Virus record (IMG/VR): IMGVR_UViG_3300011013_000009 | Span: 1-64,000 of that record | DNA length: 64,000 bases | Strand: one strand, 5' to 3' | Source of the DNA: a virus | Shown: positions 3,038 through 15,540 of the stretch, piece by piece | How positions within the stretch are numbered: the first letter of the stretch is position 1 | Layout: every line of letters begins with the position of its first letter | Program-made: the position numbers and the translations under genes | Notes under the pieces: generated by a model | What the model was told of the DNA's origin: nothing | What the model saw: the letters and a program-made list of their open reading frames with translations, nothing else | The model's database searches: none

Positions 3038-3159
3038 CACTGGCATGGATAATAATAAGTATAGCTAGTATAATAAGTATAATAGTATTCCCACCAATAG
3101 TATTAATAGCTATAGTAATATACGCTATATGGACATTATCAAGACATTATTATTTTTAG
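3001..3159 (+). CDS. small membrane protein (52 aa)
   Basis: By hand: MYRKRRRNKEELALAWIIISIASIISIIVFPPIVLIAIVIYAIWTLSRHYYF. Confidence 0.5.
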   Translation: MYRKRRRNKEELALAWIIISIASIISIIVFPPIVLIAIVIYAIWTLSRHYYF

Positions 3160-3845
3160 TCAATTTTTAGTCCATTTTTAGCTATTTCAGCAATGTATTT
3201 TTAGACCAAAGTACTTTTATTTTTAGAATGGTTTTTAGATTTAGTTACTACCAGGCGAAGAATAGGTGTGGTATGTAGTACGTTTACCTTCGGTCCTTTC
3301 AGGCCCTTCGGCAACCCGTATAAGTTCAAGACGCGGATATAGGCATTCCAGGAGTATAAGTGTGTAGTATGGAGTAAAGAATGGATAAAGTCCCCTTTCT
3401 ACCGGTATACATTATTTTTAGGGGGCATATGCTCTTTATCTCAACACCAGGTAGGTCCGGCCACCAGGAATTATTTTTAGTCCATTATACGTGCTTTTAG
3501 AGTCATTTACTTTTAGGCGGAATGGTCGTTATTTTTAGTCCTATATTTAGATTTACTTTTAGACCAAATGCCTTTTACTTTTAGACCAGGAGGCCAGGAA
3601 AGACGGTTTTATTTTTAGTCCAATATAATGTATTTTTAGATGCGTATGTATATATGCGTGTATATATATAGTTATTTTTAGACGGATATGCTATGTATTT
3701 TTAGTTTAATATATAGTCTGGGTATTCTATTTTTAGGGCAATATCCGCACTTTTAGTGCAGATCTGTTCGGTTCTCTAGCTATACGGAGTAAATTATTTT
3801 TAGAAGATCATTAGGATTTATGGATTTTTATTCTTATATTTAGAG
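3150..3845 (+). repeat. non-coding block of ~20 strand-biased (T)TTTTAG repeats; candidate origin or packaging region
   Basis: TTTTAG recurs every 10-60 nt, always in the same orientation; no ORF of 60 aa or more. Confidence 0.7.
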
Positions 3846-4247: not shown

Positions 4248-4313
4248 ATTTGCTAAAAGATTAGGATCTTTGAAATAAAGGTCTTATATTTATAGAAATT
4301 AAAATTTAAAGAT

Positions 4314-5440: not shown

Positions 5441-6022
5441 ATGGAAAAAAGAAATACGCCGGCGGGCAATACGTATTGGGATGAAAATGGAGCATACCAA
5501 AAAGAATTAAATGAACTATATAACAAACTAGTTCCGATGAGCGGCGATGCCGAAACAGTACATGGAGAATTAGTTAGAGCAGTAAATAGATTATATTACG
5601 AATATTGTAACAATGGGAATTGCAATGCTATTGTACAAGAATATGTCGAGCAGGAATATACATGTTATAATTGTGACGGTACTGGTAATAGAGATTATCA
5701 CGACCACGAGATTGATGAATGGGAGTCTGTAGAATGTGATGACTGTTATGGCGATGGCTATCAATATGAAGAAGAAGAAGGCGATCGTTATATGGATTCA
5801 TATTATGACAGAATGTTAGATTTCATAAGAGATCATGTTTCAAATTCCTATCCGGTAGTTGATGCATTGGAAAGATTTATATTAGATGGTCCTGGCTATT
5901 CGAATTATCAATTTAATGATGCTGAGTATGAGTATTACAATGATGTAGTAGATACTGTAATGCATTATGTATTGAATTCAGAGAATATACCTAATCCGGA
6001 ATATAAACCAGAAAAAGTTTAA
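5441..6022 (+). CDS. acidic protein with DnaJ-type zinc-finger motifs
   Basis: CYNCDGTG and CDDCYGDG (CxxCxGxG pair). Confidence 0.75.
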   Translation: MEKRNTPAGNTYWDENGAYQKELNELYNKLVPMSGDAETVHGELVRAVNRLYYEYCNNGNCNAIVQEYVEQEYTCYNCDGTGNRDYHDHEIDEWESVECDDCYGDGYQYEEEEGDRYMDSYYDRMLDFIRDHVSNSYPVVDALERFILDGPGYSNYQFNDAEYEYYNDVVDTVMHYVLNSENIPNPEYKPEKV

Positions 6023-6086
6023 AAAAGATTAGGATAATTGAAATATTATTCTTATATTTAAAGTATAATAATAAAAATTAAAAGAT

Positions 6087-6263
6087 ATGGGAAATTTTAA
6101 AAAATATTTAAAAAAAGAATTAGACAGGTTGATTAAAGACGCAGAAGAAATTTGGGAGTCAGAAATCAATCCGGATACAGGAGCTCAATTAACATATGAT
6201 GAGCTTCAAGAAGTAGATAGAGAATTAGAAAGATTATATAGGATGAAAAACAATCCTTTATAA
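6087..6263 (+). CDS. small hypothetical protein (58 aa)
   Basis: By hand MGNFKKYLKKELDRLIKDAEE...; follows promoter 6030 and AAAAGATATG leader. Confidence 0.7.
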   Translation: MGNFKKYLKKELDRLIKDAEEIWESEINPDTGAQLTYDELQEVDRELERLYRMKNNPL

Positions 6264-6264
6264 A

Positions 6265-6730
6265 AAAGCTTGCCATAGCTATTAAATTAGGCGTGGACCT
6301 TTATTGATATGTGATAGCTTCACATAGGTGTTGATCAACCGGTTAAAGTAATCCATGTAGGCAAGTAAATTGTGTAATAATCCAACTACGATAACTTCAT
6401 GGGGGATAGAGGTGAATATAGTGTAGCTTGAAAGATAGCACCCGAATAACTCTATTACACATAAATTTGATTACTACAGGAGAGATAGGTATCACCTTGT
6501 ATCCTGCGGAGGCTTATAATCTCACGTGCTGGAGGGGTAATCATTTAAATGCGTACACCCATGACAGAAGGGCGTAGTTCAATTGCACCTGCCGCTAAGC
6601 AGGAAGATACAATAGCAAAACCTCTGAATATTCTGTCAGGTATTATAAGTGGGCCTTGGAGTCAGGACTCCCAGACTGAGTAGGTTAGTTTTTCATATCT
6701 CTTGCCTACCATATGTGGCCCACTTTATTT
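6265..6730 (+). ncRNA. putative large structured non-coding RNA (~460 nt), family not recognised
   Basis: ORF-free and GC-elevated; nested stems 6268-74/6360-66, 6291-97/6352-58, 6308-14/6320-26, 6371-79/6453-61, 6468-74/6537-43, 6562-69/6631-38, 6588-92/6599-603, 6647-55/6717-25, 6658-63/6666-71, 6680-84/6705-09. Confidence 0.65.
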
Positions 6731-6826
6731 TTAGAATGATATGACACATTTATTTTTAGAATAATATATAGCTATTTTTAGAATGTATTTTTAGAATAAT
6801 ATTTAGTTTTAGATTTGGATTTTAGA
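6726..6826 (+). repeat. second cluster of TTTTAG repeats
   Basis: About 6 same-orientation copies directly after the structured element. Confidence 0.6.
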
Positions 6827-7178: not shown

Positions 7179-7205
7179 AGGGGCACAGAAATGTGTCCCT
7201 TTTTT
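7179..7205 (+). terminator. intrinsic terminator
   Basis: AGGGGCACA-GAAA-TGTGTCCCT followed by a T-run. Confidence 0.8.
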
Positions 7206-7496: not shown

Positions 7497-7567
7497 AATA
7501 GTTTAAAAATAATTAGGTTAGTTGAAAAATTAACCTTATATTTAAGAAATATTAAAAATTAAGAGAT

Positions 7568-7840
7568 ATGAAAATTAAAATTTTAGAAGGCTATGATGGC
7601 TTTGAAAGAAGTGTTAATGGCACAGTTGATTTGGATGGTAATAATGTGTATAAATTTGAATTAGACACTTATGACGGTATGACAAGTATATATTTGATAG
7701 ACGGGTATATTAGAATTAACTTAGAGGATGAAGATGAGTGTGATAGATATATTATTGAGGATGGTATTGAGATATATGACGAAATATTAGATTTTGTTAA
7801 TAACGAAGGCTATGACTTTATTGGAGTAGATTTTGCATAA
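7568..7840 (+). CDS. acidic hypothetical protein
   Basis: ORF track; promoter cassette. Confidence 0.75.
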   Translation: MKIKILEGYDGFERSVNGTVDLDGNNVYKFELDTYDGMTSIYLIDGYIRINLEDEDECDRYIIEDGIEIYDEILDFVNNEGYDFIGVDFA

Positions 7841-7912: not shown

Positions 7913-8281
7913 ATGGCTAAAAAGAAAAAAGAAAAAGTATTCCAGCACGGAATTGAAATTACAAAGCCTTGGAGCAAAGAGATGTATGCTCACAATGACA
8001 AGGTTGCAACGGAGGTAAGAGATGAAATTTGGGAAAGATGGGCTAAGGCAGTTTTAGATGCAAACATAGACAAAAATGGCGCATGGGAATATGATGCTAC
8101 TGAGGAAATGGAAGACATCCAGATAGCTGTTACATGTTACGGATTTGGATTTGGGCATAGTATAGGAGATGTAGAGGATGAATTTATAGATGAAATGGAA
8201 AATCTTCCTTATTACCGACTAAATCAAGTAGTAGAAGATTTAGAAATAGAATTAGAAGAAGGGTTTGTTGGCTTTAAATAG
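7913..8281 (+). CDS. hypothetical protein, paralog of 6875..7156
   Basis: Shared motif; promoter cassette. Confidence 0.8.
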   Translation: MAKKKKEKVFQHGIEITKPWSKEMYAHNDKVATEVRDEIWERWAKAVLDANIDKNGAWEYDATEEMEDIQIAVTCYGFGFGHSIGDVEDEFIDEMENLPYYRLNQVVEDLEIELEEGFVGFK

Positions 8282-8360
8282 CCAGCAAACTTTTTTTACT
8301 TTTTATTAGGATCTCTGAAATAAAGGTCTTATATTTAAGTATAATTAAAAATTAAGAGAT

Positions 8361-9265: not shown

Positions 9266-9430
9266 ATGTTAGACGTAAAAAGATATTCAGAAAACTTCCA
9301 ACTTAAGTGTTGGGCGACTTATTATAATGTATATGAATTCATTATAAAGCACGGAGAGTTATTAGCATTAGATACTTACCCGACACCGGTAGTAAATTAT
9401 TTTAAAAATTGGATTGATTCCAGAAAATAA
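9266..9430 (+). CDS. small hypothetical protein (54 aa)
   Basis: By hand MLDVKRYSENFQLKCW...; promoter 9219. Confidence 0.6.
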   Translation: MLDVKRYSENFQLKCWATYYNVYEFIIKHGELLALDTYPTPVVNYFKNWIDSRK

Positions 9431-9436
9431 AGAGAC

Positions 9437-10012
9437 ATGAAAGAATACAAATATTATGATAGAGTATTAGCGCTGGCTACATTAGCACACGACGATCAGA
9501 AAAGAAAATATTCTGATGAGATGTATATAACACATCCGATTGCTGTAGCAAAGATATTAGATGATACTTTCGAAGTTCCTGAAGATCTTATCTATGCAGC
9601 ATTATTACATGATGTGATAGAAGACACTACCGTTACTAGATCGATGTTAACAATTCAGTTAATGATGATCTTTAACGACCAGAAATTAGCCTATAGGGTA
9701 GTTAACCTAGTAACAGAACTAACCGATGTATACACCAGTGAAGCATATCCAGGTTTTAATAGAAGGCAACGAAAGCTATTAGAGCATGACAGGATAGCTA
9801 GAATTAGTGATGAAGCAAAGTTAATTAAGTTAGCAGACCTTATCCACAACACCAAGTCTATTGTCGAAGAAGATCCGTCTTTTGCGAAAGTGTATCTTAA
9901 AGAGAAAGACCATATGTTAAAGGAAATGATGGATGCACGAAAATCTGACACGTTTACTTTGGAATTTGTCCAGCTATATGAATTAGCAAAACATCATAAT
10001 AAAGTTTCATAA
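9437..10012 (+). CDS. HD-domain protein, RelA/SpoT-hydrolase (Mesh1/SAH)-like (p)ppGpp hydrolase
   Basis: AHxxQKRK, YITHPIAVA, AALLHDVIEDT, V..LT, IKLADLIHN motifs. Confidence 0.85.
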   Translation: MKEYKYYDRVLALATLAHDDQKRKYSDEMYITHPIAVAKILDDTFEVPEDLIYAALLHDVIEDTTVTRSMLTIQLMMIFNDQKLAYRVVNLVTELTDVYTSEAYPGFNRRQRKLLEHDRIARISDEAKLIKLADLIHNTKSIVEEDPSFAKVYLKEKDHMLKEMMDARKSDTFTLEFVQLYELAKHHNKVS

Positions 10013-10226: not shown

Positions 10227-10309
10227 AAAAGTTTAAAAAAAGTTAAGGAAAAGGTTGACACGCATTGATCTTTTCCTTATATTTAAGTATAATTTAAAAT
10301 TTAAGAGAT

Positions 10310-10426
10310 ATGAAAAAGAGAAAAATTGAAGCCGGAGTATTCTTCGCAGGAGTATTAGGATTTGCCGTATTGACAGCAATCCTTGTTTATAATGTATTGT
10401 TTAACGGATTAGTAATATGTATTTAA
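10310..10426 (+). CDS. small membrane protein (38 aa)
   Basis: By hand MKKRKIEAGVFFAGVLGFAVLTAILVYNVLFNGLVICI; promoter 10255. Confidence 0.65.
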   Translation: MKKRKIEAGVFFAGVLGFAVLTAILVYNVLFNGLVICI

Positions 10427-12156: not shown

Positions 12157-12266
12157 TTCAGGAAAAAAAAGTTCGCAAAAAGGTCGACTCGTATTGATAT
12201 TATTCTTATATTTAAGAAATAATAAAAATTAAGAGATATGAAAAATAATAAAAAAAGATTAGAGAT

Positions 12267-12506: not shown

Positions 12507-12570
12507 TAAAAAAAGATTAGGTTAATTGAAATATTATCCTTATATTTAAGAAATAATAAAAATTAGAGAC

Positions 12571-13521
12571 ATGAGCAATATTTATGAACCGGCCAGGTTA
12601 AATGGCAAATTAGTAGCAAAGAACATCGCTACAGGGAGTATCGCTCCGGAGGGATTGATTAGAGATATCCAAATCCAAAATGCTGAGAAGCAAGGACAGG
12701 TATTGGCAGTTGATCCGCATAATGGCAGAGTAACGAGACTCCCAGCTTCAGTAGTCGGAAAGGCTCCGGCGGAAGTGGAAGATCCTAAGCTATCCTTTAT
12801 GACAGTAGTTGAAAAGCGAGACCCGAAGGATATGTTCGACAATTTGGAGAGACTGACTAAAATGGTAGGCAGAGGAATCCAACCATCCTTGGTAGTAACC
12901 GGAGGCGCCGGATTGGGTAAGACTTATTTGGTTAAGAAAACATTAGCTGATATGGGCTTAACGGAAGCTAAGGAATTCGTTCACTTTAAAGGAAGAGCAA
13001 CTGCGGCGGGATTGTTTGTAACGCTGTATGAGAATGAGAATAAGATTATAGTGTTGGATGATTGTGATAGCGTGTTTAAGGATGCCGATGCAGTGAATTT
13101 ATTAAAAGCGGCATTGGATAGCTATGACACACGAAGGATATCATATATCAGTACTAAGCCGTTAAAGGATCAATACGGAGACCCAGTGCCAAGACACTTT
13201 GAGTTTACCGGTAAGATAATCTTTATATCCAACCTAAGCCAAGCTACGCTGGATGAAGCAGTTAAAAGCCGTTCCTTTGTATCAGACATCACAATGACGC
13301 AGGAACAAATGTTTATCCGAATAGAGCAGTTAATGGAGAGTATGGAGACAAGGATTCCAGAGACAGCTAAGAAGCAGGCATTAGAAATAATGAAAGAGTT
13401 ACATGAAAAGTATAGTGGCGTTGAGATTAATTTGAGAAGCTTTATTAAAGCGGCAAGGATATGTGCAATGGGATTTGATGATCCGACTACTATGGTAGCT
13501 GAGCAAATTATTAATTTATAA
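12571..13521 (+). CDS. AAA+/P-loop ATPase
   Basis: Walker A GGAGLGKT, Walker B IIVLDDCD, IIFISN sensor, SR finger. Confidence 0.85.
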   Translation: MSNIYEPARLNGKLVAKNIATGSIAPEGLIRDIQIQNAEKQGQVLAVDPHNGRVTRLPASVVGKAPAEVEDPKLSFMTVVEKRDPKDMFDNLERLTKMVGRGIQPSLVVTGGAGLGKTYLVKKTLADMGLTEAKEFVHFKGRATAAGLFVTLYENENKIIVLDDCDSVFKDADAVNLLKAALDSYDTRRISYISTKPLKDQYGDPVPRHFEFTGKIIFISNLSQATLDEAVKSRSFVSDITMTQEQMFIRIEQLMESMETRIPETAKKQALEIMKELHEKYSGVEINLRSFIKAARICAMGFDDPTTMVAEQIINL

Positions 13522-13540
13522 ACCATGTCTCTTAGGTTTA

Positions 13541-13566
13541 AGGAGTCGGAAACGGCTCCTTTTTTT
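13541..13566 (+). terminator. intrinsic terminator
   Basis: AGGAGTCG-GAAA-CGGCTCCT plus T-run. Confidence 0.85.
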
Positions 13567-13645
13567 CTTTAAACTTCACCGGTAAAAGATTTGGTAGAAT
13601 GAAAAAAACACCTTATATTTAAGTATAATTTAAAATTTAAGAGAT

Positions 13646-14245
13646 ATGAAAAAATTGAAAAAGCAAAAAGTAAAATTCATCGACAATACCGCAGCTTTAA
13701 AGAAAACGGATAAGAAGCACAAAGACGAAACGAATGATTGTGTGGTGTATGCTTTTATGAATGCATTTGAGGTTAGCTATGATGAAGCACATGAATATGT
13801 TGAAAAGAATTATAGCAGACGAAAAGGCAAAGGTACATTTAATACGGTACACGGATTAGCTGAGATGGGTGGATTGAAATTAGTATTATCTAAGAATACA
13901 GATAGTGATTGTGACACTAGTTATTTGAATGGCAAGACAACTAAGTATATCGGAAGTCATCCTAAAGCGTGTGTTAAAGACAAGGAAGGTAACGCTTATG
14001 GGACTTATATTAAATTAACCAATCCATTATATCCCTTAGGCAAAGGAGAGTATGCCGGATACACAGTAGGGAAGTTTAGATTACAGCATCCTAAGGGAAC
14101 ATATATTATATTAGTGAGTGGGCACGCATTGTGTATCAAAGACGGAGCGACAGTAGATAACTATTCTGAGAATGATATGTTATTCCAATTCTATAACAGA
14201 GATCAGAGAAGAGCTCTTCATATCTTCCAAGTAATTGACAAGTAA
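13646..14245 (+). CDS. hypothetical protein, possible papain-like (Cys-His-Asp) fold
   Basis: NDCVVYA ... GHALCIKDG..VD motifs. Confidence 0.6.
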   Translation: MKKLKKQKVKFIDNTAALKKTDKKHKDETNDCVVYAFMNAFEVSYDEAHEYVEKNYSRRKGKGTFNTVHGLAEMGGLKLVLSKNTDSDCDTSYLNGKTTKYIGSHPKACVKDKEGNAYGTYIKLTNPLYPLGKGEYAGYTVGKFRLQHPKGTYIILVSGHALCIKDGATVDNYSENDMLFQFYNRDQRRALHIFQVIDK

Positions 14246-14306
14246 AAAAGATTTGGTAGAGTGAAATAAAAACCTTATATTTAAGAAATAATAAAAATTA
14301 AGAGAT

Positions 14307-14648
14307 ATGAAAAAGTTTAAAAAGTTTAATTTAGGAGACACCGTTAGAGCTCACGATTTTGAAGGCAATTTGGAAGTAGGAACTATTAATGCCTGTTATG
14401 TAGAAGGCATTGTAGTAGACATTGTTAGAGTAGTAGAGATAGGAGGTTGTATGTGTTATAAGCTTAAGTGTACTAAGAAAGTATTTGGAGGCGAAGAGAT
14501 TAAAGAACACAAAGGCGAAATAGTATTCAGTCCTGTTAATGGCACTAAGACATTCTTCGGTAAAGAATTAAATCAGGTTGTGTTAGTTGAGGCATTTGAT
14601 GAAGACACAGATCCCGCAGGTGGATATGGATTACATTCCCACATTTAA
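14307..14648 (+). CDS. hypothetical protein
   Basis: ORF track; promoter 14253. Confidence 0.75.
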   Translation: MKKFKKFNLGDTVRAHDFEGNLEVGTINACYVEGIVVDIVRVVEIGGCMCYKLKCTKKVFGGEEIKEHKGEIVFSPVNGTKTFFGKELNQVVLVEAFDEDTDPAGGYGLHSHI

Positions 14649-15157: not shown

Positions 15158-15248
15158 ACTAGTTAACACAGAGATAATGAAGAAGAGAGTTTAATACAAA
15201 GACATAGCTTTAATATAGAAAGCCAATAAGATAGCAAGACATAAGCAC

Positions 15249-15294
15249 AGCGTCCCTCCTTAAGCCATAGAGCTAAGCAGTAAGGGGCGCTTTC
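15249..15294 (+). terminator. hairpin closing the early region
   Basis: AGCGTCCCT (15249-57) pairs with AGGGGCGCT (15283-91), followed by TTCT. Confidence 0.4.
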
Positions 15295-15311
15295 TACAAT
15301 CCATGCCCTAA

Positions 15312-15418
15312 GGGGGCGTAGTAAAGGGGGCAGGGGTAGAACAAGGGGGGCTGGGGCAAAACCGGGGGCTAAAGGGGGCTAAATGGGGGGGTAGGGGAGG
15401 GTTTCATTAACACCCCCC
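15312..15418 (+). other. G-tract island (10 runs of 3-7 G), G-quadruplex-capable
   Basis: G-runs at 15312, 15326, 15333, 15345, 15353, 15364, 15374, 15385, 15394, 15399; C6 at 15413. Confidence 0.75.
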
Positions 15419-15540
15419 TTATCCAGGTGCGGGTTGGCTGCGTTAAACCTATTTTCTTAGCACGGATAGATTTTTTGCTATATAGGTGGTCTTTATTAGA
15501 ATATACTGCGTATATACTTTCTGGTACATATTTATATTAA

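Follow-up and report, generated by a model that had tools for sequence, protein, structure and literature searches.

A putative RNA anti-start element that mirrors the shared start-codon region of early phage genes

Antisense RNAs that cover translation initiation regions are known from phages. The c4 antisense RNA of phages P1 and P7 (immI) is encoded on the same strand as its targets, is cut from a longer transcript and carries exposed loops that are complementary to ribosome-binding regions. It controls one operon, icd-ant, in lysogenic immunity. Here, we describe a 15-mer at positions 6689-6703 (+ strand) of a stretch of phage DNA that we refer to as the window, i.e., the first 64 kb of the 77.4-kb IMG/VR virus record IMGVR_UViG_3300011013_000009 (CheckV completeness 46%). 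Read as its reverse complement, this anti-start 15-mer is identical to the AUG region (-7 to +8) at 10310, 12238, 13646 and 14307. We see an even chance that it functions as an anti-start element at the RNA level, probably one that damps early mRNAs in trans. In mechanism, c4 is the closest described system, as the 15-mer also lies in an exposed loop (predicted unpaired probability 0.85) on the same strand as the four starts that it matches at 15/15 positions. The Rfam C4 model does not match the phage element, which is hence no member of that family. Whereas c4 controls a single operon, the phage element would have 10-18 early genes of a lytic, T4-like phage as its targets. Its mirror sequence extends over the AUG itself, and Shine-Dalgarno sequences are ignored in the lineage of the host (PMC7797042).

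Pairing between the two ends of one mRNA has been described for cellular genes. In Staphylococcus aureus, a motif in the long 3' untranslated region (UTR) of icaR mRNA pairs with the initiation region of that message to control its translation and decay (PMC3868564), and 5'-3' UTR pairing is known for the hbs mRNA of Bacillus subtilis (PMC5737220). These mRNAs are the closest match for the elements that follow stop codons in the window, at 13524-13532 and 6273-6285, and in orthologues. However, icaR and hbs are single cellular genes in which the Shine-Dalgarno sequence is paired, whereas the phage element is repeated, occurs clade-wide and mirrors the AUG region. Unlike in own-mRNA pairing, moreover, the 15-mer fits the starts of other genes better than that of its own. 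In phage T4, early genes are shut down post-transcriptionally by RegA and RegB, and hairpins occlude start sites in read-through transcripts (PMC3014915). The logic in common is a signal shared by initiation regions and a delayed feedback from an early product, but the recogniser is a protein in T4 and would be an RNA here.

T4-type phages also contain PeSL cassettes, which are described as a terminator stem-loop, an early promoter, a leader and a start codon that flank small orphan genes in hyperplastic regions (PMC2839356, PMC4122927). The window likewise has a repeated promoter-like module and leader before most of its early genes. PeSLs are recombination and regulatory modules of DNA, and an inverted copy of the start, placed at the upstream edge of the module and co-varying with the starts, is not part of their description in the passages searched (PMC2839356, PMC4122927). 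Finally, a short conserved start-associated sequence is found at the translation starts of a subset of genes in Cluster K mycobacteriophages (PMC3203893). Both its sequence and its host differ from those of the phage anti-start system. We know of no mirror copy of a start-associated sequence that is displayed in RNA, although the report on Cluster K was not searched for one, and our literature search found no published description of the anti-start system described here.

Among the genes of the record are those for a large terminase of the T4 type, a portal protein and a baseplate wedge protein, and its early region encodes a sigma-70-like factor and an HD-domain protein. The GC content of the window is ~31%, and the + strand holds nearly all genes. 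The nearest cultured phage is Flavobacterium phage immuto, with 52% terminase identity, in which we did not find the motif system; the marine metagenomic relatives number dozens. The phage is an uncultured, marine, T4-like phage and, given immuto and these marine relatives, its host is probably a member of the marine Flavobacteriia. Ribosomes in the Flavobacteriia lineage ignore Shine-Dalgarno sequences (PMC7797042). A near-identical promoter-like module and leader, with the start codon at the end of the module, precedes most early genes, and a terminator scan found stem-loops at only a few early-gene junctions of the window.

We searched the window for the sense form of the 15-mer, AAGAGATATGAAAAA. 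The minus strand contains one exact match, at 6689-6703, and the plus strand contains exact matches at 10303, 12231, 13639 and 14300. Three of these are the starts of genes (named here by the position of their start codon) that are predicted targets on the + strand: gene 10310 (10303-10317), gene 13646 (13639-13653) and gene 14307 (14300-14314), each matching at 15/15 positions. The fourth is a + strand sense copy at 12231-12245 (15/15) with its ATG at 12238; as no open reading frame (ORF) of at least 30 aa begins there, this ATG may not be a real gene start. The start of gene 7568 (7561-7575, + strand) is a further predicted target that matches at 14/15 positions. In the early region, plus-strand matches with one mismatch begin at 7561, 8354, 11677 and 11907, and those with two mismatches at 4307, 4788, 5106, 5434, 9430 and 12260, while AAAAGATATG-type starts were read at 6087, 7913, 9029 and 9266. 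Allowing up to two mismatches, the window contains 17 matches versus 1.8 +- 1.3 in shuffled sequences, with none of 100 shuffles reaching 17, and base composition predicts ~1e-3 exact antisense copies per window. A predicted duplex with the 15-mer of -10 kcal/mol or lower was found for 18/30 early starts versus 5/53 late starts, with strong duplexes at ~8 early starts. The duplexes with consensus starts reach -17 to -22 kcal/mol, compared to -13 kcal/mol with the start of gene 6087, the gene directly upstream of the 15-mer. The identity between the 15-mer and the start regions ends sharply at both ends, and local alignments span 15 nt only.

Two other origins of the 15-mer were considered and ruled out. 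The alignment of only 15 nt and the lack of any trace of an inverted promoter module exclude a decayed inverted cassette. A minus-strand gene is excluded as the motif on that strand opens a frame of three codons only.

The 15-mer is predicted to be displayed in a hairpin loop. GTAGG (6680-6684) can pair with CCTAC (6705-6709), and AAGTGGGCC (6647-6655) with GGCCCACTT (6717-6725), and the minimum free energy (MFE) fold contains exactly these helices. The display hairpin (6680-6709, + strand) is predicted to have a stem of 5-6 bp and a loop of ~20 nt. Together with a hairpin at 6658-6671 it would be enclosed by the 9-bp outer stem, forming a three-way junction (6647-6725, + strand) that we refer to as the 3' domain. 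The MFE of 6640-6730 is -29 kcal/mol (z = -2.9 versus dinucleotide shuffles), and the mean unpaired probability of the 15-mer is 0.85 in folding contexts of 96, 471 and 674 nt. The first-pass annotation of this DNA had claimed a loop that is exactly antisense to the start region shared by early genes. Its coordinates, the 15-mer and the helices all agree with the sequence and the fold, and both the excess of matches over chance and the open state of the loop in predictions bear this claim out. Directly past the outer stem lies a U-rich tract (6724-6732, + strand), which overlaps the first of several TATTTTTAGA units and is a possible transcript end. In terms of an intrinsic terminator, i.e., a GC-rich hairpin with a short loop and a U-run, a 9-bp stem and a U-run are present, but the stem encloses a branched insert of 61 nt. 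A simple terminator scan did not call the 6647-6725 domain because this loop is too large. An exact 21-mer from the 3' domain had no match in viral contigs.

Upstream of the 3' domain lies an ORF-poor island (6265-6646, + strand; GC ~0.40 versus 0.29), which is predicted to be the untranslated tail of the gene 6087 transcript. Across 6265-6725, the GC content is above that of the surroundings, and no convincing frame was found under code 11, with TAG=Q or under table 4. Gene 6087 (6087-6263, + strand) is an early gene of 58 aa, preceded by an early-promoter-like module at ~6025-6066 and a typical leader. As this module is present and the terminator scan found no terminator-like site from 6087 to 6647, the island would be a long tail of the gene 6087 transcript. 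Gene orientation and the promoter-like modules are what point to transcription of the + strand. Nine nucleotides past the stop codon of gene 6087, a gene-specific anti-start at 6273-6285 (+ strand) matches the reverse complement of 6078-6090 at 11/13 positions, including a CC opposite the unusual ATGGG start of this gene. Searches against Rfam 15, whose families include C4 antisense RNA, tRNA, tmRNA, group I/II introns, 6S and RNase P, returned no hit at the gathering threshold in the whole window and none in 6265-6735 even at E <= 10. ARAGORN identified no tRNA or tmRNA, and BLAST searches among cultured phages, with the island or with 20 kb as query, gave no match. The only intergenic parts shared with relatives are TATTTTTAGA units and the promoter that follows the island; five units of this type (6726-6813, + strand) separate the island from the gene 6875 promoter. 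The island also contains a 44-codon frame (6549-6683) with GGAGG 13 nt upstream, whose stop is located 5 nt ahead of the 15-mer and 10 nt ahead of CATATCTCT, the anti-start core. A tblastn search of this frame and of the small frame 6428-6577 against all fetched loci found no match, and frame 6549-6683 is probably no gene.

Next, we focused on relatives of the phage, whose early regions were gathered via the sigma protein (283 kb; loci are designated below by G or L and a number). The 9-nt core of the anti-start, CATATCTCT, occurs 22 times on the gene strand of these 283 kb, compared to 0.65 +- 1.07 times for 300 letter-permuted 9-mers. The sites occupy at least seven non-orthologous places that are almost all intergenic, with a stop codon or an RNA gene before them and a hairpin after them. 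In two different conserved genes, CATATCTCT directly follows the stop codon and is itself followed by a hairpin. In G003, the tail of the sigma gene has two tandem copies ahead of a terminator. A copy is found past the first early gene in G001, L121 and L122, and after a tRNA gene in L120, while in L125 a 12-bp hairpin that ends a non-coding stretch holds two copies in tandem in its loop. Genes with a post-stop element usually have the sense motif at their own start, and most copies in the relatives lie in a 3' UTR and match the start of the mRNA to which they belong. In orthologous intergenic DNA, the anti-start copies are strongly constrained while the adjacent hairpins drift. We also noticed tRNA genes beside anti-start modules within the early regions of L120 (13544-13655) and L125 (5703-5775). 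The L120 tRNA is 112 nt long, indicating a long arm or an intron, and has a copy of the motif plus hairpin on either side, one decayed and the other intact, in an insertion-like arrangement.

A second anti-start element in the window, CATGTCTCT (13524-13532, + strand), begins 2 nt past the stop codon of gene 12571 (12571-13521) and precedes a terminator at 13540-13561. It is an exact 9/9 complement of the start region AGAGACATG of the same gene (12565-12573, + strand), with which it co-varies. We compared 63 distinct sequences of gene 12571 orthologues. In the window and in L260-L266 (94-99% protein identity to the window), the start has a C and the tail a G, forming a C-G pair. L280 and L284 (77-79% identity) have a U in the start and a G in the tail, i.e., a U.G wobble. 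In L269-L281 (81-84% identity), a start U faces a tail A in helices of 9-12 contiguous pairs, with 12 pairs in L269. A C opposite an A was never seen among these orthologues, and the variant tail G can still form wobble pairs with ordinary starts. Other lineages have gene-specific extensions of the pairing: the G003 clade shows a second such extension, with ATGCA at the start and its mirror TGCAT in the tail, and in L312 and L315 the start ATGAC is mirrored by the tail GTCAT. This compensatory change via a wobble intermediate points to pairing at the RNA level, as the path from U-A through U.G to C-G is the behaviour of an RNA helix, whereas neither a protein site nor a scar of recombination would be expected to change in this way. 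In a permutation analysis, not significant overall, signal was found only at positions -1, +4/+5 and -7.

Two further genes in the window may be mentioned beside gene 12571. The start region of the HD-domain gene 9437, at 9430-9444, also has the variant AGAGACATG, and the gene is thus a second perfect partner for 13524-13532. In gene 7913 (7913-8281), the terminator (8256-8297) overlaps the stop codon, and its 3' half has 6 nt that are complementary to the ATGGCTA start of the gene itself. This own-pair duplex ranks first of 32, and the start and terminator of gene 7913 are possibly another fold-back pair, or a chance match.

Some relatives carry mirror sequences in a conserved non-coding RNA (ncRNA). 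An ORF-free, GC-rich unit of ~300-370 nt follows a large TATTTTTAGA array and a promoter-like module in L120, L126, L127, L128 and L134. The putative ncRNA is located at L128 7615-7975, L127 6790-7110, L126 2820-3095, L134 279-560 and L120 7682-8010, with further loci at L125 5590-5960, a diverged form with an inserted tRNA, and at G002 86246-86396 (minus strand), a short form. It has no Rfam match, but its helices co-vary, with nine pairs showing double changes. A covariance model of its two 5' helical domains (R1) recovers L120, L126, L127, L128 and L134, and L125 weakly (E = 0.001); it has no match in the window, even with filters off. A single-stranded linker holds the anti-start in L126 and L128 and a G variant of it in L127; the anti-start is missing in L134 and G002. 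The loop of the terminal hairpin is a 15-nt CU-rich sequence that is invariant in all six sequences and is predicted to be 97% unpaired. Its sequence is the mirror of the purine leader that immediately precedes the AUG in early genes of those phages. In the complete genome G002, all 9/9 genes with the shared promoter-proximal leader (assigned by eye) have predicted pairing energies of -9 to -11 kcal/mol, versus -0.4 to -5 kcal/mol for other genes of the region. In L125, the hairpin loop unites the CU-rich and anti-AUG parts. A homologue of gene 6875 lies a few hundred nt downstream of the ncRNA in L120, L128 and L134, so the island of the window is at a roughly equivalent place. The leaders of the window would be bound poorly by the CU loop of the relatives (-6 kcal/mol) and well by the loop of the window itself (-13 kcal/mol), which suggests that the loop type follows the leader type of the genome, across only three loop types. 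A separate observation concerns an internal loop of this ncRNA that holds AACACCUCC, which we take to resemble the 3' end, or anti-Shine-Dalgarno, of Bacteroidota 16S rRNA. For that 3' end, the sequence quoted is ACCUCCUUUCU (PMC7797042).

The sequences show complementarity, an open loop in predictions, recurring mirrors among the relatives and compensatory changes; for transcription, transcript ends, in vivo pairing and the direction of the effect, we infer the following model. Starting near 6030 from the promoter-like module, a transcript would include gene 6087 and an untranslated tail of 470 nt and end at the three-way-junction domain (6647-6725) and its U-run. The display loop would present a mirror of the AUG region that early mRNAs have in common and would pair in trans with the start regions of roughly 8-18 of them. 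Pairing would cover the AUG and reduce initiation, mRNA stability or both, resulting in a delayed negative feedback on early genes. Repression is the likeliest outcome as it is the AUG itself that would be covered. For the same reason, recruitment of ribosomes by the RNA, a role also suggested in the first-pass annotation, is unlikely. Trans action of the 15-mer is favoured by its placement in a loop, by its fit to the consensus above that to its own start and by the presence of an own-specific copy at 6273-6285. The sequences of the relatives suggest that the clade uses two kinds of element, namely short post-stop copies directed at their own start and copies exposed in ncRNAs. The former would fold back on the start of their own gene once the tail has been made, limiting initiation or triggering decay. 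The latter would act in trans, as they have no start of their own to pair with, and we place the 15-mer among them.

This comparison also refines what had been proposed for the early regulon as a whole. The expected co-variation with leaders in relatives is present in outline: mirrors recur at transcript 3' ends and in ncRNAs, compensatory changes occur and the loop type tracks the leader type. An off-switch fits in so far as trans pairing with early starts is favoured and repression would be its likeliest effect, but the idea of one unique master RNA does not hold up, given the second element at 13524-13532, the gene-specific element at 6273-6285 and the relatives, in which copies mostly belong to the 3' UTR of their own mRNA. 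A wider proposal, which we put forward tentatively and consider somewhat less than an even bet, is that the clade has an RNA system of addresses and anti-addresses. Here, tags over the AUG would be mirrored in mRNA tails, which would be self-limiting, and in ncRNAs acting on the whole early set, which would time the shut-off of early translation through RNA only, in hosts with ribosomes that do not heed Shine-Dalgarno sequences, with the loop of the window as a trans member.

Several results weigh against an action of the 15-mer in trans on the early regulon. The fold of the whole 6265-6735 region has z = -0.47 on the + strand, no better than shuffles, and z = -1.97 on the - strand; the structured RNA claimed in the first-pass annotation is thus retained for the 3' domain (z = -2.9), to which the predicted support is restricted, and not for the whole island. 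Bar the 15-mer, BLAST and nhmmer returned nothing homologous to the island from five large relatives and 17 early-region loci, leaving no homologous copy of the loop to compare. In gene 12571, the co-variation consists of only 2-3 independent events, and a permutation of the start/tail pairing over all flanking positions was not significant (5503/20000). The post-stop element is missing in 28/63 distinct loci and is thus dispensable. The predicted RNA would be produced simultaneously with its targets, and pairing over 9-15 bp of A/U-rich sequence is modest. As far as can be judged from sequence, the evidence from the relatives best supports pairing in cis, with the own mRNA, over pairing in trans.

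One alternative reading is that of cis action only, in which the loop would pair with the gene 6087 start of its own mRNA or, in a read-through transcript, with a start further downstream. It would limit the translation of this single message, as post-stop copies seem to do, with no action across the regulon. Cis action fits the observation that every co-variation found links the start of a gene with its own tail, and that the order of stop, anti-start and hairpin is the common architecture in the relatives. The start of gene 6087 can also pair with the loop at -13.3 kcal/mol, with one mismatch and two G.U pairs. However, a better, own-specific copy for this gene is already present at 6273-6285, eight other starts match the loop better than the own start does, and the joint fold of 6062-6735 leaves the loop unpaired. 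The next genes downstream, 6875 and 7323, lack the motif, and a strong terminator (7179-7200) precedes gene 7568. The ncRNAs of L128 and L125, moreover, carry mirrors without a start codon of their own. We consider cis action alone unlikely for the 15-mer. Rather unlikely, too, is an explanation at the level of DNA, without a function in RNA, in which the modules of promoter, leader and ATG are recombination substrates like the PeSLs of T4 and an exchange between them left the inverted 15-mer as its scar or boundary. The near-identical promoter/leader modules with a start codon at their end do resemble PeSLs (PMC2839356, PMC4122927), relatives gain and lose the element, and the L120 tRNA between a decayed and an intact copy of the motif plus hairpin looks like an insertion. 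A by-product of exchange does not account for the sharp 15-nt limit of identity without a trace of an inverted promoter, nor for the strong constraint on copies in orthologous intergenic DNA whose adjacent hairpins drift. The variants seen are wobble-compatible or compensated, which processes acting on DNA do not predict for repeats 950 nt apart, and the placement of the copies is specific to strand and position (after stops, before hairpins and in loops).

Sites for proteins at gene boundaries are known in other phages, an example being the stoperators of mycobacteriophages. The 9-mer could in the same way be bound as double-stranded DNA by a protein of the phage or its host, working in either orientation as an operator or roadblock, as it occurs in both orientations at gene boundaries and as conserved short start/stop motifs are protein sites in other phages, the start-associated sequences being a possible case (PMC3203893). 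This is very unlikely, since the sense copies hold a fixed register to the ATG, since a match that extends into the coding sequence in a gene-specific way has its mirror in the tail of that gene, and since a change via U.G to C-G is in keeping with RNA pairing and not with one protein site; no candidate binding protein was identified either. Least probable of all is a chance match in AT-rich DNA or the start of a minus-strand mini-gene. The motif is A/T-rich in a genome of 31% GC, and on the minus strand it forms a start motif with a three-codon frame, similar to one after the inverted motif in G001 and G003. However, only ~1e-3 exact copies are expected per window and no shuffle came near the observed counts. 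The minus strand has no early-promoter-like module (judged by eye) and almost no genes in this region, and a three-codon frame is no gene.

If RNA mirrors of translation starts do operate in these phages, widespread marine phages would shut off their early genes by RNA, and not by proteins like RegA and RegB, and this shut-off would include self-limiting 5'-3' fold-back on individual mRNAs. It would be a route to the control of initiation in Bacteroidota, in which Shine-Dalgarno pairing is not used, and would provide a reason why unrelated early genes retain an identical sequence over the AUG. The co-varying pairs of start and tail are ready designs for compensatory mutations.

Other features of the early region are as follows. 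Upstream of gene 6087, an early gene at 5441-6022 encodes a 193-aa protein with weak matches to the DnaJ-type CXXCXGXG and anti-TRAP zinc fingers. The only homologues found for it are from unrelated phages of higher GC content (L002-L005), which are uninformative as relatives. The TATTTTTAGA-type units form two arrays in the window, at 3151-3844 (16 copies) and 6726-6813 (5 copies), all on the + strand and with at most one mismatch. Their spacing is often ~21-22 bp, and each unit is similar to the -7 box in the promoter-like modules of early genes. Both the large array and a preceding GC-rich piece (3240-3480) are kept in G001 (109500-110030), G002 (86530-87350, minus strand), L120, L121, L127 and L128, and this conserved block terminates in a common GGTTCTCTAGCTATAC-like block. 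The TATTTTTAGA arrays may be iterons of an origin or a protein-binding array. Further downstream, a non-coding island at 15158-15540 contains approximately nine runs of G4-G7 on the + strand. This G-run island, which divides the early cassettes from the next gene block, is kept in G004, L136, L125, L128, L120 and G002.

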